From IMG/VR virus record IMGVR_UViG_2602041671_000010: a DNA stretch of 12,969 nt. One strand, written 5' to 3'. Both the position numbers and the translations under genes were made by a program. This DNA is from a virus (Duplodnaviria; Heunggongvirae; Uroviricota; Caudoviricetes). This document shows, piece by piece, positions 1 to 10,895 of the stretch. The notes under the pieces are model-generated. The model saw nothing but the letters and a program-made list of their open reading frames with translations. It did not search any database and was not told the origin of the DNA. Every line of letters begins with the position of its first letter. Position 1 is the first letter of the stretch.

Positions 1-463
1 ATGTCGATATGGGGATTCCCATATCGGGAACCCTACCGGATTTTTTTCCGGTTAACAGTTAATCAGGCTGGTGGGCTTTACATACCCTTGATCACCGTAA
101 TGATGATCCAGATGTGCACCTTTTCCACCAATGGCGGAAAAGCTCCAACCGTAACGATGATCGCTATGGTTGCCTCGATGGTCTGCGTGGTCATTATGAC
201 CATTCAGCCAGTGACCTTAATCAGAATTTTTCGCTAAAAAATGACGTTGGCCACGTCATCCGGAAAGCACAAAATCACGTCGATTTTTAATGAACGGTTA
301 AACCGTCTTTTTGTCACGGTGTGTCACTGGTTGTCACTCTCCGTCACGATTGAGGTGGTGGTCATTCTGCCCGACCGCGCATTTTTGCGCTATCGGGAAT
401 ATAAAACAGTTACCGCCGTCATTCAGCCAGCGCAATTTTGAGCTTTGCTTTAATCTCAGTGAG

Positions 464-745
464 TTACCGCCGTAACCGCTCCGGCTTCTTCCAGTGGTAC
501 GTGATTTTCTCCTTCTCCCGATACATCTCCACGCGGCGACGGTATGCCAGCAACTCAAGGACTCTGGTTCGTATGTTGCGCATATCCACGCCGTTAAGCT
601 CAATACCATCACGGCGCATCACCTCAGCAACCACACGCGCATAATTTTCGGCGGTCACGCTGTCCGGCTGCGTGGCCTGTTCGTCAGCCTGCTGGCTGAT
701 TCCGGCAACGCGACGGATTAATCGCAGTAGTTCGGCTTCTGTCAT
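464..745 (-). CDS. hypothetical protein (93 aa) immediately downstream of terL
   Basis: ORF in track; ATG at 745 preceded by GAGGT Shine-Dalgarno about 7 nt upstream; 13 nt after the TerL stop; no recognisable motifs. Confidence 0.5.
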   Translation of the reverse strand: MTEAELLRLIRRVAGISQQADEQATQPDSVTAENYARVVAEVMRRDGIELNGVDMRNIRTRVLELLAYRRRVEMYREKEKITYHWKKPERLRR

Positions 746-758
746 GCTGCTGACCTCA

Positions 759-2420
759 TTACACCCCGCTAAATTCTTCCAGTTTCTGGCGGTGGCTGTC
801 GCTTATATCAAAAGCAAAATCCTCATGCTCTGCCTGGAATGTACCAAACGCCATCAGCGCCGCCACGCTCGGGTCTATCTTGTTCGGTGATTTTTTCTTG
901 TTCGGCTTGATATTGGCGTTCGCGTCACTCTGCATCACGACGTTACTCATCGACCAGGACAACACCGGATCGCCACGATGCACAATCACCCTGCGGTTAA
1001 CAAAAACTTCGAACGATTTCGCCGCCGGACTGAATCTGAGGTAGGTTTGCGGGAACGGCTCCACCTCAAAACCAGCCCCCTGTAATTGCGTCCTGAGATG
1101 CGTGGCGTTCCACGTATCAAAGCCCACCAGCCTGATATTAAATTTCTCCGCATCCTGCATGATGTCATCTCTGATCCGGTCGTAATCAATGCAGTCACCT
1201 GGCGTTGTGCGTATCCAGCCCGCTTTAGCCCACTGGCGATAGACAGCGCGGTTTTTATTGGCGGGGTTCTGTAGCTGGAACTCCGGCAGATAATGACGGG
1301 AAACCAGCATGATATTTTTACCGACCGGAAAGGCATAGCACACGCTGGAAATATCGCTGGTTGATGATAAGTCCAGCCCCGCGTAACACTCCTGCCCGTG
1401 TAAATCTTCCTCCGTGAACGTTCCGGCACACTCAGCCCATGCGCCGTTACCCATCCACGGGGTAGCCCCCTGGCACCAGATATTAAATCGCTTTGTCATC
1501 ATCTCCACCCATTGCGACGGAATACCCCGCGCTTTCTGGATGGTTGAGGCCAGTTTTTCACGATCCACGGAAACATCGATGTTAGGGTTAGCCTTTATCC
1601 ACATCGCCGGATCATCAACCTCGTTTTCGTCGTCCAGCTCGTAAATCAGCACAAAAATTGAATCGTTGACCTCTTCGCCGTCCAGGATCTGGCAGCAATA
1701 ATCATAGTGCTGTTTACAGGTTGAAACGACGTTACTGCCCGATGTGGTAATGGCAAATAACAGCCCTTCGGGACGTGCGCCCATCCCCAGCTCAAGCGCG
1801 GAATAAACGCCGTTATCGGGGTGTAGGTGGTATTCGTCCACGATGGAAAGGCTTGGGTTTGTGCCCTCGATGGTTGCCGCTTTTGCTGCCAGCGGCTTTA
1901 ACAGGCTGTTGCTTTTCGGGTGCATCACCTTGTGGGCCTGAATATTCACCCGCCTGCGTAACGGTCGGGATAAAAGGCACATCTGACGCGCATCATCAAA
2001 AACGATCCGCGCCTGGTCACGGCTCACCGCTGCGGTGTAAATATCCTGCTGCCCGTTCTCCATAATCAGAAACCAGTTAGCCAGAATCGCGGCGGTCGTG
2101 GATTTCGCATTTTTGCGCGGCACTTCGATAAAGGCGCTCGTGTATTTGCGCCGTCCGGTGGCCTTAACCTTAAAGCCGAGGATGCACGCAAAGGCGAACT
2201 GCTGCCACGGCTCCAGCTCAATGGGTCTGCCACGCATCGGCCCTTTTACGTGCAGGCACACCCTGGAAAAGGCAATAAACCGCTCCACAACCTCACGATC
2301 GAACGTGTAAAGGGGGCTTTCAAGGTCCGAAAAGTACCGTTTAACGGCCTGTTTCAGCCGTTTACAGGCCGGAATTTTGCCCGTTTTTACGTCTTCTGCG
2401 TACTTATTCCAGGCGGTCAA
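759..2420 (-). CDS. terL: terminase large subunit (553 aa)
   Basis: Long ORF of typical TerL size; P-loop-like segment VPRKNAKSTTAA near the N-terminus and acidic C-terminal half consistent with ATPase plus nuclease domains; start overlaps the TerS 3' end by 17 nt as in coupled terminase genes. Confidence 0.88.
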   Translation of the reverse strand: MTAWNKYAEDVKTGKIPACKRLKQAVKRYFSDLESPLYTFDREVVERFIAFSRVCLHVKGPMRGRPIELEPWQQFAFACILGFKVKATGRRKYTSAFIEVPRKNAKSTTAAILANWFLIMENGQQDIYTAAVSRDQARIVFDDARQMCLLSRPLRRRVNIQAHKVMHPKSNSLLKPLAAKAATIEGTNPSLSIVDEYHLHPDNGVYSALELGMGARPEGLLFAITTSGSNVVSTCKQHYDYCCQILDGEEVNDSIFVLIYELDDENEVDDPAMWIKANPNIDVSVDREKLASTIQKARGIPSQWVEMMTKRFNIWCQGATPWMGNGAWAECAGTFTEEDLHGQECYAGLDLSSTSDISSVCYAFPVGKNIMLVSRHYLPEFQLQNPANKNRAVYRQWAKAGWIRTTPGDCIDYDRIRDDIMQDAEKFNIRLVGFDTWNATHLRTQLQGAGFEVEPFPQTYLRFSPAAKSFEVFVNRRVIVHRGDPVLSWSMSNVVMQSDANANIKPNKKKSPNKIDPSVAALMAFGTFQAEHEDFAFDISDSHRQKLEEFSGV

Positions 2421-2760
2421 GCTCGTCCTCTTCTTCTGTTTCCGGTGGATTTTTACGGCGGCTTATCGGGTCAAAACCGAGCAAGGAGGCCATTTTTATC
2501 ATCACTCTTTCAGCGTCGGATTTTGCGCTTAATGCGGGGTTTCTGCTCTCGCCGCCCTGACTGTTAACAATGCTGAACCCGCGCGCCGCAAGGTCTGCAA
2601 CGGCTTTCCGGTAAATGGAGTAGTTGACACAATACAGTTCCAGATTGCTCCAGTCGGCGGGGGTCAGGTCTCCCCGTTCCGCAAGCTGCCGCGATTTTTC
2701 CCGCCACTGCTTCACGGCGATGTCATCCAGGTAGGCGGGGGCTTTCGGTGGTCTTGCCAT
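2404..2760 (-). CDS. terS: terminase small subunit, P27-like family (118 aa from ATG 2760; ORF track extends to 2805)
   Basis: N-terminus MARPPKAPAYL resembles the GRPPKP-type start I recall for P27-family TerS; lies directly upstream of and overlapping terL; neither candidate start has a clear SD, so the start is uncertain. Confidence 0.72.
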   Translation of the reverse strand: MARPPKAPAYLDDIAVKQWREKSRQLAERGDLTPADWSNLELYCVNYSIYRKAVADLAARGFSIVNSQGGESRNPALSAKSDAERVMIKMASLLGFDPISRRKNPPETEEEDELDRLE

Positions 2761-2884
2761 GCTTATTTTTTTCGCCAGATTATTTTTCAAAAAATTCCCG
2801 TGCATAAAAATTTGAGGAGGCGTTCGGTGCCCGGCGGGGTCGGGTTTGTCCTGAAAACGCCCCCCACCCCGTCATACAGCCTCA

Positions 2885-3067
2885 TCAGCGATTGCGGAAA
2901 CATTCCATAACCTCGCGGTCACGGTCGGTTAATCGCTTCGCTGTGATGCGTTCTGCGCGTCCTGACGCTTTATCTTTATGCCCTGTTTCCTGTGTCTTCC
3001 ATGCGTCACGCTGCCTTATAAGTCCACGGATAAGGCGGTTTTGTTCCCGCTCATTCATCAGCGTCAT
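2885..3067 (-). CDS. small basic hypothetical protein (60 aa) between HNH and terS; may not be real
   Basis: ATG at 3067 in the frame of track ORF 2885..3289; highly charged helical-looking sequence; weak RBS; sits in a 245-bp HNH-terS gap that may instead hold a cos site. Confidence 0.3.
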   Translation of the reverse strand: MTLMNEREQNRLIRGLIRQRDAWKTQETGHKDKASGRAERITAKRLTDRDREVMECFRNR

Positions 3068-3491
3068 ACATCCAGTTATTGCGGTTAGCGGCCCGTTCTT
3101 CCTCTTCACGAAATCCACCTGCGGCACGCTTGCTTTTTGTTGCCGGATCAAGCCATTTCGTTTTCTGGTTATGACACGCCTGGCACAATGGTTGATGGTT
3201 CCATTCGGGCCAGAAGAGAACATCATCACCGCCATTAATCGGGATAATGTGATCCACCACCACGGCGGGCGTATATATCCCCTTCTCAAGGCATCGCACG
3301 CATAACGGGTTTTTACTCAGATACATGGCGCGGTATTTGTCCCACTGTCTGGAATATCCACGCGCGCGGCGGTGTCCTCGTCTGGCATCCTCTGCACGCC
3401 ATGCCGCCCGCCTGTGCTCCTCACACTTGCCGGATTTAACGCGCCTGTTACAGCCTGGTTCTGTGCATCGTCTTAATGGTTGCCACGGCAT
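3051..3491 (-). CDS. HNH endonuclease (146 aa), terminase-associated
   Basis: Cys pairs and catalytic-type motif: CNRRV...C, CVRC, VDHIIPINGG, QPLCQACHNQK; located immediately upstream of terS-terL as in HK97-like cos phages; start overlaps the stop of the upstream connector gene. Confidence 0.88.
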   Translation of the reverse strand: MPWQPLRRCTEPGCNRRVKSGKCEEHRRAAWRAEDARRGHRRARGYSRQWDKYRAMYLSKNPLCVRCLEKGIYTPAVVVDHIIPINGGDDVLFWPEWNHQPLCQACHNQKTKWLDPATKSKRAAGGFREEEERAANRNNWMYDADE

Positions 3492-3787
3492 CAGTACACC
3501 CCCACATCACGGTAAGCCGTCCAGAGTGCGCCAATCGTCATGGGTACGCGTGTTTTTGCGTTATCCGCGACAATCTGGCGATTCTCATACAGGTGAGCGA
3601 TAAACATCATGCAGCCAATCTTTATGGCTGGCGTGAACTCCAGCCCGTCATCAAAGCGCCTGCCTATGTGTATCTGGCACGCCTCAAGCGATGCGGCAAT
3701 GTATCCGCTGATTAACTGGTCTTCCTCGTCTCCATCGATACGGCAATGGAGTTTCACTTCTTCCAGGGTGATAAGTTCTTCTGTCAT
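3491..3787 (-). CDS. head-tail connector protein, gp6-like (98 aa)
   Basis: Size, position between head closure gene and HNH, and overall sequence character typical of phage gp6-like connector proteins; assignment by recognition, not search. Confidence 0.65.
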   Translation of the reverse strand: MTEELITLEEVKLHCRIDGDEEDQLISGYIAASLEACQIHIGRRFDDGLEFTPAIKIGCMMFIAHLYENRQIVADNAKTRVPMTIGALWTAYRDVGVY

Positions 3788-4122
3788 TTTTCCGCGCCCT
3801 CACGACAAAGAATTTCAAGGCGTGTCCTGGCGACATCCGGCAACGGCTGCCCGATGATATTCAGTACACGCCCCGCCAGCGGCCCCGTACTGACCTTTAT
3901 CCGGCTGGTGGCGTTGATGTCCTTCCGGTACCGTATCCAGATCCTTACGGTACCAATCGCCAGCTCTGCGCCCGATGAAATGGCCTCCTTGCTGCTGATC
4001 ATGTTCACGCTTGCCCAGAGTGTGTGACCGTCCTCCCACGTTTCGAGTATTTCGCCCGTCATGGCTCTGGTCTGTTTCAGGGTCTGAATCGTTATCCTGT
4101 CACGCAGTCGCCCTATGTTCAT
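3784..4122 (-). CDS. head closure / head-tail joining protein (about 112 aa; likely start ATG 4122, track ORF extends to 4164)
   Basis: MNIGRLRDRITIQ N-terminus is typical of head-tail joining family proteins; ATG 4120-4122 overlaps the portal stop (ATGA-type overlap), whereas the track start would overlap portal by 46 nt. Confidence 0.68.
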   Translation of the reverse strand: MNIGRLRDRITIQTLKQTRAMTGEILETWEDGHTLWASVNMISSKEAISSGAELAIGTVRIWIRYRKDINATSRIKVSTGPLAGRVLNIIGQPLPDVARTRLEILCREGAEK

Positions 4123-5330
4123 TCCGGTTTTTCTCCCTCGCTGATTTTTACTTCCTGTTTCCATGCCTGACTGAACTCATCACCACCATCACGCGGTGAC
4201 AGTCCTTCACGTTCGCGGGCTTCGTTCGGGCACATAACGCCGGATTTGATGCCGCGCTCATAGGTGGCAAAGCGTTCGCCAGGTGTGGCCCGTAACAGGT
4301 CCGCGCTGTCAAACTCCACCTGATACCGGATACCAGGTACAGGCGAGGCCACCAGCAGGGCGTTTTTTATCTGCTGCTCAAAGTTCGCCAGCCACGGGCG
4401 CATCGTCATGGTGAGAAATGCGCGGCTTGCCTCGCTGAAATTGCTGTAGGTGCTGTTGCTGTATTCCTGCAAAAAAATCGGCGAGACGTTGAACATTCGG
4501 GCGATGTCTTCAATGGTAAAGCGACGGGAGGCCAGCCATTCAGCATCCTGATTACTCATGCCCAGCTGCTGATAGCTCATCCCCCCTTCAAGGATGGGCG
4601 TTTTTCCGGCGTTTCTGGCCCCTTTGTAGCGTTCCAGTGCGGCTAATGCCTGTTTGCCCTTCACGCCGTCCAGCCATTCGCCTGACGTGATAACCCCTGC
4701 CGCCATCATGCCATCACGCATCACGCTCGCGCCGTGGCGTTGTTGGGCCAGCCCAAGCCCCAGCGATTCGCGGCAGATGGTTACAGGTGAGCGCCCCATA
4801 AAGCCGTCATCCGTGGAGTAACGAAGGTGAAGTACTTCCCATGGTAAATAGTTGTGGGTGTTTCCGGTGTAGGCGTCAGTGATGCAATAGCGCCAGTTGT
4901 GTTCGCCTGTCTGCTCCACGTTCACCGACTGCGGCGGGTAAGGATGTAAAGCCGCCGGAAAACCATCACGCCCCCACTGAATAACCGCATAAGCATTACC
5001 GTTTAACAGGCAGTGGCGGATCATCATTCGCTTAAACTGGTAGGGAGTCTGCCACGCGTTCGGGCGCTCGTTGAGGATGTGATCGACCGGATGAGAATCA
5101 AGCCACTCGCGGGCCTCCTTCCCCTTCTCATTGCGTACCAGGTACAGGTAACACGGCATAGTAGCCACCGCCTCAGAGATGACCGTGACGGCGTTCATGA
5201 CGGCGGGCAGTGATTCCGCTGTCCCCGATGATACGTACTCACCCGCCCCCGTGTTCGATGTGCCAGCCAGCGCCATAAATTCATCAAGCGTCATGCTGCG
5301 CTGCTCTTTTTTTCTTCTGAAAGGCCACAT
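4119..5330 (-). CDS. portal protein, HK97-like family (403 aa)
   Basis: Size and position between prohead protease and head closure genes; sequence has the overall character of HK97-family portal proteins. Confidence 0.85.
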   Translation of the reverse strand: MWPFRRKKEQRSMTLDEFMALAGTSNTGAGEYVSSGTAESLPAVMNAVTVISEAVATMPCYLYLVRNEKGKEAREWLDSHPVDHILNERPNAWQTPYQFKRMMIRHCLLNGNAYAVIQWGRDGFPAALHPYPPQSVNVEQTGEHNWRYCITDAYTGNTHNYLPWEVLHLRYSTDDGFMGRSPVTICRESLGLGLAQQRHGASVMRDGMMAAGVITSGEWLDGVKGKQALAALERYKGARNAGKTPILEGGMSYQQLGMSNQDAEWLASRRFTIEDIARMFNVSPIFLQEYSNSTYSNFSEASRAFLTMTMRPWLANFEQQIKNALLVASPVPGIRYQVEFDSADLLRATPGERFATYERGIKSGVMCPNEAREREGLSPRDGGDEFSQAWKQEVKISEGEKPE

Positions 5331-5331
5331 A

Positions 5332-5904
5332 TCACACCCCCGCTAAATCCACCCACCAGCGGCGATTATCCGCACGCGGCATTTTTTCGGGGTGCTGCTC
5401 ATACAGGGAACGGCGGGCCAGCTCCACGCCGGAATCAGGGTAAGCCGGAACGGATGTAACGGTAATTTCGTACAGTTCCGCCACCAGCACGGTGCGCACG
5501 CATGGTTCTGTTGTGGTATCCCATACATCCTTACGGGAACGAAAGCCAAAGCTCATGCCGGATATATCACCACGTTTAACCAGTTCGATAACGTCCCGCC
5601 CTGTGCTGGTATCCGGTGGGGTCAGTTCAAAGCGTAACCCTGTTTCGTCCTCTTCCAGTTTCAGCGTGCCGGAACGGGTACGCCCCAGTAACATGCTGTG
5701 GTCATGCTCATACAGGCCGCGAACGTCATTACCCGCTGCAAGCCATTCAGTAAACGCTCCCCGCTGGAATTTTTCGTAAAACTCACCCCATAACAGTTCT
5801 GAAAGCTTATCCCAGCGAACAACGTAGCCCGTCAGCGTACCGGCTCCGCTGGTGGTGATTTCCGATGACCGGATTTCCATACTCTTCATAATTTTTTCAC
5901 CCAT
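5332..5904 (-). CDS. prohead maturation protease, HK97 family (about 185-190 aa; start 5904 or 5889)
   Basis: Small protein between capsid and portal genes, 2 nt before the portal ATG; size and position match the HK97 prohead protease; ATG 5889 has a better SD (GGTGA) than 5904. Confidence 0.82.
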   Translation of the reverse strand: MGEKIMKSMEIRSSEITTSGAGTLTGYVVRWDKLSELLWGEFYEKFQRGAFTEWLAAGNDVRGLYEHDHSMLLGRTRSGTLKLEEDETGLRFELTPPDTSTGRDVIELVKRGDISGMSFGFRSRKDVWDTTTEPCVRTVLVAELYEITVTSVPAYPDSGVELARRSLYEQHPEKMPRADNRRWWVDLAGV

Positions 5905-5933
5905 AAAACACTAAAGGGGCTTTTAAGCCCCTT
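5905..5933 (-). terminator. stem-loop between capsid and protease genes (GGGGC/GCCCC) with a U-rich tail; likely partial terminator or stabiliser
   Basis: Inverted repeat GGGGCTT/AAGCCCC at 5916-5931; on the minus-strand RNA it is followed by UUUAGUGUUUUAU. Confidence 0.5.
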
Positions 5934-5943
5934 CTGTATGCTG

Positions 5944-7100
5944 TTAATCGTCGTCCTGTGGCAGTTCCAGAATCTTGATCGCGTTCGAATCCACCACGCC
6001 ACCGCCTAAATATTTCTGCGTGAAAATTTTGATGAAGCCCGGCTCTGTGAGGTTGTCCGGTCTGGTGCGAACACCTGTTTCGTGATCAACAATGTAGTAA
6101 CCGCGCTTGAAGTCACCCAGGGCAATAACGTTATCAGGCATAAACTCCAGATATTCGACCGGAAGGCCCAGCAACGTATCAGGATCACCCGCCTGTAAAC
6201 GGTCGCGCCAGATGTAATCACCGTTCGCGTTCTTCACCTTCTGAAGTTTTGCCGCCGTCGTGGAGTTAACCACCCAGACCGCGTTTTTGCGGTATTTTTT
6301 ACGTAATGCAAATTTCAGGTCGATCAGCGGGTCCGCAGATGTCCACGCCAGAGATTCGGAAGGTTTAATTACCTGCAACGTACCAAAATCACGCTCTTTG
6401 TCGTTCTTCTCTGCACGGGGTACGGATAAAAAGCCTTTTGCTTTTTTGTCACCGTCGCCCACAACCAGATCGCTTTCTTCGGTTTCCGTGAAGGTGTCGC
6501 CAATCTCACCCGTCAGCCATGAAAGGATGTCCACATCGGAAAAATCCACGATTTCCTGTGTGGTGCGCGGGTACGCATAGACCGGATACAGCTTAATGCT
6601 CACCTCGTTAATCTGCGGGGTGCTGGTCTGTTCGCGTGCCTTACCCTCTTCACCGTGGTTAACGGTCGCACCGCCAGCGGAAACAAGCTGCTTAAACTCG
6701 TTGCTGCTGATTTTTTCACGGTACAGATGCGGCGCATGGTGGACTCATCCACCAGCATTCGCATGATTTCGGTGTTCAGTTCGGGGATAACGGTATAACC
6801 ACCATCAGCGGGAACGCCTGTACTTAATGCGCGGGTTTCACCTGTCAGAATGTAGCTGCGTAGTTCTGCGGGGTCAGTGGTCTGGCTGCTTTTACCTGGC
6901 TTGCTGCGCTCTTCGTCTGCAATGGCTTCAAGGCGGGAAATGTCTTTATCGAGGGATTCAGCTTTAGCGCGTAATTCGTCAAATTTTGCGCCCTCAGCAT
7001 CGTTAAGACTGCGGTTTTCTTTTTCCGCGTTCTCCAGCATGTCGCGCATCTGATTTTTAATGGCGGTTTTCTGCTGGCGTAATTCGATTATTCTCGGCAT
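5944..7100 (-). CDS. major capsid protein, HK97 fold, interrupted by a 1-nt frameshift in an A6 run (6711-6716); N-terminal coiled-coil delta domain
   Basis: N part (track ORF 6600..7145 from ATG 7100): coiled-coil then GETRALSTGVPADGGYTVIPELNTEIMRMLVDESTMRRICTV. C part (track ORF 5944..6603): my own translation of the same frame upstream of 6603 gives ISSNEFKQLVSAGGATVNHGEEG, continuing into LYPVYAYP...VVGDGDKKAKGFL, matching HK97-family conserved blocks. The two parts join if the run were A7. Confidence 0.8.
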
Positions 7101-7140
7101 AAAAAAAAGTCCTGGGGTTAAGTAAGGAACTCCAGGACGC
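7101..7140 (-). terminator. intrinsic terminator abutting the major capsid ATG
   Basis: Minus-strand RNA GCGUCCUGGAG-loop-CCCCAGGAC followed by U8, then AUG directly. Confidence 0.65.
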
Positions 7141-7321
7141 GGCAAAAACTCAACCGTTTTTCATAAGGGAATCAGCAATCGCACCGATCGTTTTCCCGCC
7201 TGGTAATGAATATTGGCGAGCACATTAACAGGCGGGAAAGTGGCCCCAGCGTCCTGGCACCACGGGCGAGAATAATCATGATTCAGTTCGGGTAAAATAT
7301 GCCGATCCGCTCAGTGAACAA
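7141..7321 (-). promoter_or_regulatory. candidate late promoter (-35 TTGTTC, 16-nt spacer, -10 TATTTT at 7294-7321) and roughly 185-nt structured leader
   Basis: Promoter-like hexamers read on the minus strand; leader contains an 11-bp stem (UUUCCCGCCUG/CAGGCGGGAAA) and a CCAGGACGC element complementary to the terminator 5' arm. Confidence 0.4.
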
Positions 7322-7360
7322 CGTGGAACAACCACGAACAAATAATTTACAAAAAATAAC

Positions 7361-7383
7361 AAAAAGCCGGATTGCTCCGGCTG
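7361..7383 (-). terminator. intrinsic terminator (GCCGGA-TTGC-TCCGGC plus U-run on the minus strand)
   Basis: Perfect 6-bp GC-rich stem with tetraloop; A5 on the plus strand equals a U-run 3' of the hairpin on the minus-strand RNA; downstream of ORF 7393..7617. Confidence 0.7.
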
Positions 7384-7392
7384 TATGGGTGC

Positions 7393-7617
7393 TCAGTCCC
7401 TGATCCCTTTCAGAAATTCTATCAATGCATCTGTCTGTTCAGGATTTACCGCCAGCATTTCACCGGATAGCGCGCAACGAACAAAACCATGATGATCCTT
7501 TTCAATCAGCGCCCCCGTTTCCAGGAATGCTCGGTAATCAGTGATGTTCATCGTCTCCATGTTGTCAGCATGGTATTTATCACGCTGTTTTAATATCTCA
7601 TCAAATTTCGTCGGCAT
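7393..7617 (-). CDS. hypothetical small protein (74 aa) in a terminator-insulated monocistronic unit
   Basis: ATG 7617 preceded by AGAGGA SD about 7 nt upstream; flanked on both sides by near-identical intrinsic terminators; no recognisable motifs. Confidence 0.6.
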   Translation of the reverse strand: MPTKFDEILKQRDKYHADNMETMNITDYRAFLETGALIEKDHHGFVRCALSGEMLAVNPEQTDALIEFLKGIRD

Positions 7618-7712
7618 TGTTTTTTCCTCTGTTGTGTCTGTTTGTTTCAGATAGTAACTATGCCGGACCGTGACGAAAAGCCAGTAGTGCGCCATACCAT
7701 TTCAAATGACGC

Positions 7713-7736
7713 AAAAAAAGCCGGATTGCTCCGGCT
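7713..7736 (-). terminator. intrinsic terminator, near-identical copy of the 7361..7383 hairpin
   Basis: AGCCGGA-TTGC-TCCGGCT with A7 on the plus strand (U7 tail on the minus RNA); downstream of ORF 7759..8007. Confidence 0.7.
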
Positions 7737-7758
7737 GCGTGGTGTGGTTCTGATATTC

Positions 7759-8007
7759 CTACTCAGCTAATTTGCTCAGCCCCATGTCTGCATAAGTGCG
7801 ATTTACTGCATTTCTCAGGTCTGCGTAGTTCTCCGTTGGCGGCTCCGGTGGCCTCTGTGCCTTCCTGGAACATTCCAGCCGTCGCATCGTAACCTGATGC
7901 CGTTCCTTGTCTGTCTCCACCAGTTGCATGACTTCACCCCATCGCGCCGACGCCCTCCGGTAAAAGCCTTTTGCCTCGAGTTCCTCCGCTATGCGGTCAT
8001 GTACCAT
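7759..8007 (-). CDS. hypothetical protein (82 aa from ATG 8007; track ORF extends to 8127)
   Basis: ATG 8007 has a GAGGGGG SD at good spacing and avoids overlap with ssb; upstream starts overlap ssb; followed by an intrinsic terminator. Confidence 0.5.
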   Translation of the reverse strand: MVHDRIAEELEAKGFYRRASARWGEVMQLVETDKERHQVTMRRLECSRKAQRPPEPPTENYADLRNAVNRTYADMGLSKLAE

Positions 8008-8017
8008 CGTCACCCCC

Positions 8018-8428
8018 TCAGAACGGAATACCGTCACCGTAAGGGTCATCGCCTCCCGCTGGTGGCTGATTACCCTGTGTGCCTGTGGTTTTGCGTCTGT
8101 TCCCGCCTGGACGTGCCGCGCGGGCACTGATTACGCTGTCTGCAATAACCTGATACCCCTGCCGTGTTTCCCCGTTCTGTCCGGTCCACTGGCTGATCTG
8201 CATGTTACCCGCCACGGTCAGGAGTTCACCTTTGCGGTGCCTTGCCAGTGCTTCGGCCTGTCTGCCAAATGCCAGGACGGATAACCACATCGTCACCGTT
8301 CCGTCATCTGCCTGGCTGCACGGAAGGGGGACCGCCATACTCGCCATCGTCATTTGTGTACCCTTGCTGGTGGTCTTTAACTGCGGGTCAGCCACCAGCC
8401 GCCCGTAAGCTGCAATTTGTGCTGTCAT
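8018..8428 (-). CDS. ssb: single-stranded DNA-binding protein (136 aa)
   Basis: OB-fold-like N-terminal region, Gly/Pro/Gln-rich linker and acidic C-terminal tail ending DDPYGDGIPF (compare the DDDIPF tail of bacterial SSB); GAGGTGG SD 4 nt upstream of ATG. Confidence 0.8.
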   Translation of the reverse strand: MTAQIAAYGRLVADPQLKTTSKGTQMTMASMAVPLPCSQADDGTVTMWLSVLAFGRQAEALARHRKGELLTVAGNMQISQWTGQNGETRQGYQVIADSVISARAARPGGNRRKTTGTQGNQPPAGGDDPYGDGIPF

Positions 8429-8505
8429 ATTGCCACCTCAGTGAAGCGATCCGGCGTTGTTCTTTTTCATCTTTTTCATCTCTTCCATCATTTTTTCAGT
8501 GAGCA

Positions 8506-8751
8506 TTACGCACTGAAAACCCATTTTTTGATGTCTACGGGTTTCATGCCTTTGTCAGTGGATATCACAGGCAGAATATCCTGATACACATCGCGGTCAG
8601 GGTAACTAAGCACACAAAGCGCCCATGATGCCACGGGTGAGGATCCTTCGTCTGTTTCAACCCACCAGCCTGGTGTAGCTGCGCTTATTTGCAGAATCGT
8701 GATCCGTCCGTTGTGCTTGTAAAATTTTTCACCAAATTTTGCTTCGCTCAT
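8506..8751 (-). CDS. hypothetical protein (81 aa)
   Basis: Strong SD (GGAGAGGTGG); ATGA overlap with the stop of the upstream ORF suggests translational coupling. Confidence 0.55.
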   Translation of the reverse strand: MSEAKFGEKFYKHNGRITILQISAATPGWWVETDEGSSPVASWALCVLSYPDRDVYQDILPVISTDKGMKPVDIKKWVFSA

Positions 8752-9203: not shown

Positions 9204-10599
9204 ACAGTGGTCCTACATCATCACCATCAATGTAAATCACGGCGTCTTTTTCCAGTTTGGCTAACCATCGCCGCATATTTTTCACGTCATACCCAAGCCG
9301 TTTCATGTCATCACGTAACAGCGGGATCGTGCACTTGTCGCCGTTCTGTGTGCGTGAACGGATGCACCCCCATAGTGCGGTATGGTTTTCCGTCTTGTTG
9401 CCTGCCTCCTCGATGCGCTCCAGTTCAACGGGAGGGCGCGGCTTATCCACCACCACCAGCGACGTGATTAACTCCCCGTCAGCGTCGGTAAACAGCTCCA
9501 CCACGCGTAAGTCATATGCGGCTTCTTTGAGTTCCTCCGCGTCCTTCATTTTGGTGCATGAGATAACCAGCGCTTCGCTTCCTGCGTCCTCCCTGCGTAT
9601 CCGGTATTCAGCATCCAGCGAAGCACGAAATGCACTGGAACCGCGCGCGCCTTTCGTCTCATCCTTGCCGGAATGGTGAACCACCAGCACCGTGGCCCCT
9701 GTGCGCCGTTTAAGCTCGTCACACCCACGGATAAACGCCCCCATATCACGGGAATCATTTTCATCATTGCCACCAAAGCAACGCGCCAGAGTATCAAGAA
9801 TAATCATGCGTACAGGTTTACCCGTTTCCCGCTCCACCTGACGGGCAGCGATAACCAGTTCATCAACATCAAGCGGGACAGCCGGAAAAACTGGACGGTT
9901 TACCAGATACAGATTTTTCACCTGCTCACCGTGCACAACCTCCCAGGCTTTTACACGACGCGGAACGCCGATACCGCCTTCACCAACCACATAGAGAACA
10001 GCGCCATGCGCCACCCTGCGGCCTCCCCACTGGCGGCCCGTGGAAACGTGACACGCCCACGAACCCGCAAGGAATGATTTATAGGAACCGCTTGCCCCGT
10101 ATATGCTGCATAGCGACGATGCCGGAATAATCCCCTTTACCACGTAATCTAATTGCGTGTCGTATCCGGCAGATCCAACGCTCATCGGTAGCGTGGTTTT
10201 TCGCTGGTGGTGTTCTTCCCCTGGCTTTTTCCCCCGCTCCCGTTCCAGATATTCGCGCCAGTTCTCCCGCTTCTGGCTGTGTATCCCTTCGGGGTAATAA
10301 TTCGCATCAGTTACGCCCGCCGCCGCCAGCTTGTGCGCAATGGCATTAATATTTGATGGCCTGATGTGGCCTGCCTTGTACAGCCGGACACAATAGCGCC
10401 CCTCGTCGATGATTCTCAGGTCTGCCAGTTCATCCAGTTGATCATCAGCCAGCACAATGGGAGGCACATTATCGCCAGCCAGTCGCCCGTCCTGTTCCTG
10501 CCACTGTTTCGCATGTGCCCACGCATCACTACCCGCAAAAATGATGACTTCGGTCATCTTGTCGTAAGGCTGTTTTTTTAAGTTCGGTGCGCTTTTCAT
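9202..10599 (-). CDS. replication protein: RecA-like P-loop ATPase (AAA_25/RepA-like), putative primase/helicase (465 aa)
   Basis: Deviant Walker A GASGSYKS, Walker B-like RMIILDT, HHSGK motif typical of RepA/DnaB-like ATPases; ATGA overlap with the upstream gene; iteron array immediately after its stop. Confidence 0.75.
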   Translation of the reverse strand: MKSAPNLKKQPYDKMTEVIIFAGSDAWAHAKQWQEQDGRLAGDNVPPIVLADDQLDELADLRIIDEGRYCVRLYKAGHIRPSNINAIAHKLAAAGVTDANYYPEGIHSQKRENWREYLERERGKKPGEEHHQRKTTLPMSVGSAGYDTQLDYVVKGIIPASSLCSIYGASGSYKSFLAGSWACHVSTGRQWGGRRVAHGAVLYVVGEGGIGVPRRVKAWEVVHGEQVKNLYLVNRPVFPAVPLDVDELVIAARQVERETGKPVRMIILDTLARCFGGNDENDSRDMGAFIRGCDELKRRTGATVLVVHHSGKDETKGARGSSAFRASLDAEYRIRREDAGSEALVISCTKMKDAEELKEAAYDLRVVELFTDADGELITSLVVVDKPRPPVELERIEEAGNKTENHTALWGCIRSRTQNGDKCTIPLLRDDMKRLGYDVKNMRRWLAKLEKDAVIYIDGDDVGPL

Positions 10600-10895
10600 T
10601 TCTTGCCCCTGAATCCGTTAATCATGTTTTTCATCTTCTGAATATTGGCGCGTGCTTTCTCCCTGCAGGTGGGCACGTTATGCGGCGCGGTCTGTACCAG
10701 AGAAAAATCACGCCGGAACTGATAAACAGGCATCACGCAATCATATTCGTAGCCTTCACGACGGTAGGTGATGCGCCGTTCTGCCACGCCTTTAATCGTT
10801 ACCGTACCGCCGTAGTTATCACGGAAAATATCGCCGGGGCGGATTTCAGGCCGAGAGAAGTCACTGGCAGTAAAGCCAGAATTTTTCTTTTTCAT
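10596..10895 (-). CDS. small conserved hypothetical protein (99 aa), possibly DUF4222-like
   Basis: ORF translationally coupled to the replication gene (ATGA overlap at 10596-10599); DUF4222 assignment is from memory of P4-like replication modules and is unverified. Confidence 0.45.
   Translation of the reverse strand: MKKKNSGFTASDFSRPEIRPGDIFRDNYGGTVTIKGVAERRITYRREGYEYDCVMPVYQFRRDFSLVQTAPHNVPTCREKARANIQKMKNMINGFRGKK

Follow-up and report, generated by a model that had tools for sequence, protein, structure and literature searches.

A small gene between two copies of a predicted terminator at the early/late boundary of an Escherichia coli capsid-forming PICI: evidence for a position-conserved, naturally dispensable satellite gene

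The stretch of DNA analyzed here (the window; 12,969 nucleotides, IMG/VR virus record IMGVR_UViG_2602041671_000010) carries a block of genes that all lie on the minus strand, including a gene for a 74-aa protein, orf74 (7393..7617), and the two terminator-like hairpins on either side of it. Along that strand, an Ash-like gene, a DUF4222 gene and the genes for a RepA/AAA_25 helicase and SSB are followed by a pchE-like gene for a PerC-family regulator (7759..8007; Pfam PF06069, E = 3e-35, and RefSeq annotation), orf74 and the gene for an HK97-type major capsid protein (5944..7100), downstream of which come genes for an S78 prohead protease, a portal protein, head closure and connector proteins, an HNH protein, a P27-family TerS and TerL. 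This order agrees with an earlier note on the sequence, which had placed the small gene between replication genes and the head operon. A copy of the element that is 98% identical to the window overall is found in E. coli FORC_041 (L001), where it forms an island of ~14.5 kb (cf-PICIs measure ~15 kb) flanked by phoQ and roxA, with a tyrosine integrase gene and an AlpA-type HTH gene adjoining roxA in the RefSeq annotation. Published descriptions of capsid-forming PICIs (cf-PICIs; 10.1101/2022.09.08.507074; 10.1101/2025.02.11.637232) provide the grounds for assigning the element to a type: the int, alpA and replication genes lie co-oriented at one end (int and the AlpA-type gene being those of the FORC_041 island), and the element has head and packaging genes of its own, from the HK97-type capsid to TerL, with no tail or lysis genes in the annotation of either the window block or that island. 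By its gene content, the element is an E. coli cf-PICI, a satellite of the EcCIEDL933/OI-51 type; helper-phage-dependent induction and transfer have been demonstrated by experiment only for EcCIEDL933 itself (10.1101/2022.09.08.507074).

EcCIEDL933 (O-island 51, CP-933C or Sp7 of E. coli O157:H7) shares with this element both the order and the families of its genes, namely int, alpA, RgdR/DUF4222, a replicase, SSB, PerC (pchE), a small ORF, the HK97 capsid (gene 1786 or ECs1590), protease, portal, connectors, HNH, the small ORF 1792, TerS and TerL, and the stretch from PerC through orf74 to the capsid gene in O157 strains is ~92.6% identical to the window. The window differs from it in having a RepA-helicase replication module, alleles of its own and a frameshifted capsid gene. 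Judged by gene order, the O157 Sakai counterpart of orf74 is ECs1589, which directly precedes capsid gene 1786 in the numbering of EcCIEDL933. The published one-by-one mutagenesis of EcCIEDL933 addressed the packaging module from the capsid gene onward, in which orf74 is not counted, and we found no characterization of the 74-aa gene in the literature searched. Two identifications with known genes were considered and rejected. The hypothetical gene 1792 of the mutant series cannot be orf74 because the numbering, with 1786 for the capsid gene, assigns 1792 to another small ORF, located between HNH and TerS; nor is orf74 RgdR (ECs1581), whose homologue in the window is the basic DUF4222 protein of 99 aa (10596-10895, minus strand). 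RgdR is known from OI-51 as a regulator that controls LEE/type III secretion and motility, and its window allele has R-P-G-D at the place for which the functionally important RGD motif (residues 20-22) has been reported. The capsid gene, intact in FORC_041, is split in the window into ORFs at 6600-7145 and 5944-6603 by a T-run at ~6711 that has six Ts as against seven in FORC_041; the window copy is either a pseudogene or affected by a homopolymer sequencing error.

The orf74 gene starts with the ATG at 7617-7615 and ends with the TGA at 7395-7393. As the earlier note had stated, without naming the strand, the gene has its own Shine-Dalgarno sequence: on the minus strand, the motif AGAGGA (7630-7625), rated good, lies 7 nt 5' of the ATG. 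RefSeq annotates the identical 225-bp CDS in a strain with the same sequence across the region. An N-terminal extension (100 aa) is not used, as all homologues begin at the methionine encoded by the ATG at 7617. Comparison of orf74 alleles yields pN/pS values of 0.09-0.20 in the more diverged pairs (all but the closest pair), which indicates that orf74 is a real gene under purifying selection. Its leader of 94 nt, which includes the Shine-Dalgarno sequence (7618..7711, minus strand), is ~93% conserved between E. coli alleles. In many strains, RefSeq places a frameshifted 'trigger factor' pseudogene within this leader (L002:9509-9624, corresponding to ~7640-7700 of the window); this has the look of a false annotation of the in-frame sequence by which the ORF can be lengthened upstream.

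The two repeats that bracket orf74 share the 23-mer AAAAAGCCGGATTGCTCCGGCTG, present in the window at 7361-7383 and 7715-7737 and nowhere else; the copies show 0 mismatches, and 200 shuffled sequences contained no match (none expected by chance). Outside the 23-mer, the similarity continues imperfectly for a few more bases. On the minus strand, both copies form a stem AGCCGGA/TCCGGCT (7 bp, 5 of them GC) with the loop GCAA, followed by a T-tract, and the two hairpins fold at -15.7 and -12.8 kcal/mol (z = -4.7 and -3.3). The upstream copy, T1 (7712..7737; hairpin 7736-7719, T7 at 7718-7712), starts 22 nt past the stop codon of the PerC gene, and the downstream copy, T2 (7350..7383; hairpin 7382-7365, followed by T5GTTAT6 at 7364-7350), starts 10 nt past that of orf74. 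As a GC-rich hairpin and a U-tract come shortly after a same-strand stop codon in both cases, the two copies qualify as canonical predicted Rho-independent (intrinsic) terminators, T1 of the PerC gene and T2 of orf74, so that the bracketing of the ORF by two near-identical terminators described in the earlier note is borne out. Every E. coli PICI examined, whether or not it contains orf74, has a hairpin of the T1 type 3' of PerC, one with a third type of head module (L035) among them. In classical PICIs, a third copy with the loop variant GAAA is found on the coding strand (L016:6733-6748 and L017:6735-6750) between the head/decoration genes and the next downstream gene, which encodes TerS in L016 and a hypothetical protein in L017; one hairpin is thus reused at several module boundaries of a single island.

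No sigma-70-like promoter was detected at 6500-8600 by a consensus scan, nor did a looser scan of the segment between T1 and the ATG (at least 8/12 matches to the -35/-10 boxes, with A2 and T6) yield a candidate; weak, atypical or activator-dependent promoters are beyond the reach of such a scan. Given that no promoter was found, the unit consists of a gene and a terminator rather than a promoter, a gene and a terminator.

This unit, orf74 plus one copy of the terminator, measures 354 bp. To delineate its distribution, 5426 complete E. coli genomes were compared with a 1081-bp query extending from the 5' end of the capsid gene through orf74 and PerC to the 3' end of the SSB gene, the cassette included; 925 of them contained a match, and the matches fell into discrete classes. 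Full-length matches represent cf-PICIs with orf74 (211 genomes), and matches in two pieces lacking ~350 bp represent cf-PICIs without it (~120 genomes, a figure extrapolated from 8 of 60 evenly spaced match rows). Matches that begin at query base 312 (window 7361) come from classical PICIs with orf74, and those that begin at base 665 (window 7714) from classical PICIs without orf74, CFT073 among them. Both BLAST breakpoints, 7361 and 7714, fall within a base or two of the edges of the repeats, 7361 being the outer edge of the downstream 23-mer. The interior of the cassette was detected in 541 of the 5426 genomes, at 594 places, nearly all with 93-100% identity.

Individual islands bear out the earlier portrayal of the gene as a self-contained, discrete unit. 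The cf-PICI of strain 25-07338 (L015), whose flanks are 99.2% identical to those in the window, is shorter by exactly 354 bp, with PerC followed by the capsid leader and a single hairpin; a second empty cf-PICI, in strain CFSAN061761 (L036), has a primase-type replication backbone. In the classical PICI of O157:H7 TR01 (L016), orf74 lies between two hairpins and is followed by an unrelated head module of the EcCICFT073 type, and CFT073 (L017) has a head module of this same type with a single hairpin and no orf74. The unit is thereby present or absent among islands that are otherwise 94-99% identical. Given that the 354-bp unit can be present or absent and is joined to unrelated head modules at the hairpins, the shared hairpin appears to act as a recombination module junction. 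From the breakpoints, we infer that the unit really is a cassette that has been gained, lost and swapped between satellites at the terminators, and we conclude that the hairpin is probably the standard terminator of the early block, doubling as the module junction for the 354-bp unit as well as for whole head modules. The exact route is less clear: the L015 junction (CACC|ATACA) coincides with the 5' edge of the hairpin, outside the perfect 23-mer, so that simple homologous exchange inside the repeat is not proven, and these data would fit insertion and deletion of the unit equally well. Mosaic lambdoid phages carry short linker or boundary sequences at the junctions of their modules. The arrangement described here is similar in that a short shared sequence, in this case a hairpin of ~23-30 bp, is located at the junctions of exchangeable modules and recurs after PerC, after orf74 and a third time inside classical PICIs; it differs in that the shared sequence is a functional-looking terminator and in that exchange is deduced from breakpoints. 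The existence of apparently intact islands without the gene, together with the transfer of EcCICFT073, which lacks orf74, at about 1e5 (PMC6092414), indicates that orf74 is naturally dispensable.

A first homology search with orf74 retrieved only close relatives in E. coli. Comparison with protein family profiles shows that orf74 belongs to phrog_1957 (E = 1.5e-39; residues 1-74 aligned with profile positions 1-74 of 82), a family of unassigned function, and ORFs found at the same position in cf-PICIs that were retrieved via the capsid protein, from Rosenbergiella (L004), Citrobacter (L005) and Gilliamella (L007), proved to be homologues. They share 31-42% identity with the window protein, as compared with 66-74% for the capsid proteins of the same pairs of islands, which means that orf74 changes at about double the rate of the capsid protein. 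A search with the alignment of homologues recovered 86 clusters from Klebsiella, Enterobacter, Citrobacter, Serratia, Pectobacterium, Kosakonia, Morganella, Gilliamella and other Enterobacterales, and an exhaustive profile search raised the family to 143 representatives at 50% identity, with all 75 of those tested matching phrog_1957. A tblastn search of 50,697 phage genomes with orf74 returned no match, and the family appears, from these searches, to be confined to satellites and prophage-like regions.

The position of these homologues is conserved. They occupy the early/late boundary, after a replication gene and before the HK97 capsid operon, both on metagenomic contigs and in the cf-PICIs of Rosenbergiella, Citrobacter, Gilliamella, Klebsiella/Enterobacter and Morganella; the pre-capsid position is held in cf-PICIs of at least seven other genera, none of which has PerC. 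In L004 and L025, the homologue directly follows SSB; in L004 and L022, only 13-19 nt separate its start from the gene upstream, and in L007 and L018 it comes directly after iteron-like repeats. Exceptions are an Erwinia island without a homologue (L006), a Pectobacterium satellite (L031) in which a homologue is present and the next 5 kb contain no capsid gene, and the most distant members of the family (L027/28), which lie in phage-like early regions near primase genes. These homologues speak against a recent arrival of foreign cargo; the earlier note had described a unit with the layout of accessory cargo, dropped in between two modules. That note had also named universal conservation at this position, combined with a known structural or replication role, as the finding that would tell against its view; orf74 turns out to be widespread rather than universal, and no role has been assigned to it. 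Taken together, the sequence comparisons portray orf74 as a long-standing, position-conserved gene of the satellite backbone that probably became mobile in E. coli by means of the duplicated backbone terminator.

The same distribution raises the question of which unit was the newcomer. Among the loci examined, PerC is confined to E. coli and Shigella, so that PerC with its terminator is at least as likely as orf74 to be the later insertion. Conceivably, the ancestral order was SSB, orf74, terminator and head leader; the insertion of PerC with its terminator then created the repeat, and the empty sites are secondary deletions. Homologues of orf74 in genera without PerC, directly after SSB in the two islands just mentioned, are as expected under this scenario, and so are the role of the PerC-terminator as the junction to three different head modules and the 5 nt directly 5' of the hairpin in L015, which are of the T2 type, as would be the case in a deletion product. 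None of the E. coli islands examined here had SSB directly followed by orf74 and lacked PerC, and the junction data are equally well explained by insertion of the cassette. All in all, we regard this history as a serious contender, a little short of an even chance; it concerns the past of the locus alone and is compatible with the explanation of orf74 that we favor below.

The proximity to replication genes could also be taken literally, with orf74 being a factor for copy-number control, an accessory of the origin or a partner of SSB. Indeed, the gene always comes after the replication block, in some islands directly after SSB or the origin-like iterons, is retained in the satellite that has no nearby capsid gene, and neighbors primase genes in the phage-like contigs. 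The replication genes that accompany it, however, belong to three unrelated types (RepA/AAA_25, D5_N/DUF5906 and a Toprim-type 783-aa primase), which makes a specific partnership unlikely, and the replicating island of CFT073 lacks orf74 altogether. A replication-associated role is therefore very unlikely in our estimate. The iteron-like repeats themselves, GGTGAACAC, GTATTCACC and GTGTTCACC, are located at ~5220-5500 in L007 and ~4710-4990 in L018, downstream of the primase gene and upstream of the orf74 homologue, and presumably mark the replication origin of these islands.

With a GC content of 44%, compared with 51-59% in the neighboring genes, the orf74 cassette could be taken for a recent acquisition. 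This interpretation was rejected: in all nine islands analyzed (the window, L004, L005, L007, L018, L022, L025, L029 and L032), the orf74 homologue falls short of the island's own capsid and replication genes by 7-15 GC points, so that the offset is family-wide, and the GC content of the family still tracks that of the host despite this persistent offset. The observation bears directly on the possibility that orf74 is a true moron or accessory cargo, that is, a recently acquired, self-expressed gene for anti-defense, superinfection exclusion or host modulation that is active from the resident island. Like the morons of lambdoid prophages, which are units of promoter, gene and terminator, orf74 is a single small gene with its own Shine-Dalgarno sequence and terminator, situated between two backbone modules, present or absent at a precise site among close relatives and lower in GC than its neighbors; moreover, its product is small and acidic, as are many anti-defense proteins. 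Unlike them, it has no detectable promoter of its own and has an extra terminator upstream, and its family is fixed at the same position across genera, behaving as part of the backbone and evolving under purifying selection rather than in the manner of an arms race. Thus, of the features that mark a moron, the downstream terminator (T2) and the presence or absence at a precise site stand, and the promoter and the foreign origin do not: the scans, the homologues in distant islands and the family-wide GC offset all speak against these. We consider that orf74 is unlikely to be a moron in the strict sense.

Recognizable defense genes in these islands are found elsewhere. Where extra genes are present, they sit between the orf74 homologue and the capsid leader. 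Published work on cf-PICIs (10.1101/2025.02.11.637232) calls the region ahead of the packaging operon variable and anticipates immune systems in it, an expectation that by itself would suit a moron-like orf74; the cargo region following the homologue is, by its position, this same variable region. Two opposite-strand genes at L018:5288-6845 (also in L019-L021) match the PADLOC models PDC-M18A/B (E = 6e-72 and 3e-25), and this pair served as the positive control in the PADLOC search in which orf74 had no match. Since the defense cargo of L018 lies downstream of the homologue, the latter flanks the hotspot and is not part of its content. Different cargo occupies the same spot in L006 (4577-5685), L032 (5405-6307) and the Citrobacter cf-PICI L005 (5307-5717); in the last of these, the opposite strand encodes a 136-aa ORF composed of tandem TSRQGTDGRV-like repeats that has no match in PADLOC.

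At the level of the protein, the earlier impression that orf74 has no recognizable motif holds. Pfam searches with orf74 produced only sub-threshold noise (DUF1398 and PDF2_C at E ~0.09), the 75 relatives share no Pfam family, and NCBIfam gave no match. The best profile match to PDB sequences, N.BspD6I (E = 0.016 over a 38-residue stretch), was treated as noise. The proteins of the family are acidic, with a median pI of 5.0 and a net negative charge in 93% of the 75 members, and the conserved residues are Y28, D41, H43, A56, Q61, L65, I66 and L69. AlphaFold2, run on an alignment of 41 sequences, predicts with high confidence (pLDDT 90) a compact, small alpha/beta fold consisting of three N-terminal helices, a three-stranded sheet and a C-terminal helix. 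Fold comparison returned no match, wHTH, other DNA-binding and RNA-binding folds included, and an acidic protein of this kind does not fit the basic surface of DNA-binding regulators. The homology and structure analysis suggested at the outset has thus supplied a family and a confident model, although neither a known fold nor a functional family. On the evidence as a whole, a structural, enzymatic or DNA-binding role seems unlikely; the acidity and small size of the protein tentatively point to a protein-binding accessory factor that acts early after induction.

A more specific version of this idea is that phrog_1957 is a new-fold, satellite-specific effector of the early-to-late transition that binds a helper-phage or host protein, with the terminator-bounded layout providing a dedicated route for the exchange of such effectors between PICI backbones. 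If so, the effector could favor the morphogenesis of the satellite over that of the helper or counter host defense on entry; we regard this version as speculative and rather improbable. The gene for Ppi of the SaPIs, the phage packaging interference protein, has the replication origin on one side and the morphogenesis operon on the other. As a small satellite protein encoded in this location, it is a positional analogue of orf74, and for a helper-binding role an analogue in position only; the comparison is weakened by the report that EcCIEDL933 does not interfere with its helper.

Among the explanations considered, the one that accounts for most of these observations, and to which we would assign roughly an even chance, is that orf74 is a conserved, dispensable early gene of the satellite that is bounded by a duplicated backbone terminator and probably encodes a protein-binding accessory factor. 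In the cf-PICIs of many Enterobacterales, phrog_1957 supplies the last gene of the early/replication block, located before the head operon or before the defense-cargo hotspot that precedes it. The presence of a Shine-Dalgarno sequence without a recognizable promoter, along with homologues that abut the upstream early genes, makes it most likely that orf74 is expressed together with the early genes; the spacing of 13-19 nt in distant islands likewise suggests co-transcription of the homologue with the early block. As long as the island is uninduced, both orf74 and the head operon would be silenced by T1 and T2, and upon induction by a helper phage, orf74 would be expressed with the early genes via read-through or antitermination of T1. 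AlpA of the PICIs activates island genes (PMC6092414), and Pseudomonas AlpA is a processive antiterminator (PMC7969949; PMC9371919); by extrapolation from this homologue, AlpA might provide for antitermination across both T1 and T2 on induction. The orf74 protein would then bind a protein of the helper phage, the host or the island, acting as a dispensable fitness factor. The deep conservation of position could equally mean that orf74 has a core role whose loss is tolerated by laboratory strains.

The terminator-flanked orf74 represents modular exchange within a known family of satellites and not a new kind of system. It is of interest because cf-PICIs are recently described, widespread satellites that move between species and whose genes outside the packaging module are largely unstudied. 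The exchange of a 354-bp unit at a reused hairpin offers a concrete, testable example of module shuffling in satellites, and orf74, as a conserved, dispensable and uncharacterized gene at the early/late boundary that lies outside the published mutant series, is a clear candidate for deletion and interaction studies in the EcCIEDL933 system.

Directly downstream of T2 lies the leader of the head operon (7101..7352, minus strand), which begins with TTGTAAATTAT (7352-7342). A leader of ~220-250 nt is conserved upstream of the capsid genes in the window and in the cf-PICIs L004, L005, L006, L018, L025, L029 and L032. A nested RNA structure of 24 pairs is predicted for it, in which 90.6% of the alignment cells are paired, as against 31-42% with slid partners, and compensatory changes are observed at 11 pairs, as against 1-5 in the slid controls. 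In the E. coli leader, GCGTCCTGG (7140-7132) has two alternative pairing partners, CCAGGACGC (7257-7249) and CCAGGAC (7115-7109), the latter followed by T8 directly ahead of the capsid ATG; these alternative pairings look like the layout of an attenuator. An Rfam search of 6900-7900 yielded nothing significant, and the leader, which is probably more novel than the terminator-flanked gene, may represent a previously undescribed element that regulates the late operons of satellites in cis.

Given that such a covariation-supported leader calls for some trans-acting input, and that orf74 is nearly always the last gene ahead of the capsid operon, the gene might encode a regulator of the head module or an assembly cofactor that acts, for example, on the structured leader or in procapsid assembly. 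The two are separable in both directions, however: the leader and an intact head operon exist without orf74 in L015, L036 and L006, and orf74 exists without this leader or operon in L016, L031 and L027/28. The gene also lies outside the packaging module of the mutant study, and its acidic product matches no wHTH or RNA-binding fold, so that we find a role of this kind quite unlikely.

In small variants, TTGTAAATTAT opens the leader in every cf-PICI examined (L004-L007, L018, L022, L025, L029 and L032, with only a loose match in L007), the short metagenomic contig L026 being the exception. It directly follows the orf74 homologue, the terminator of the homologue or the cargo genes, and could be a promoter element or the binding site of a regulator.
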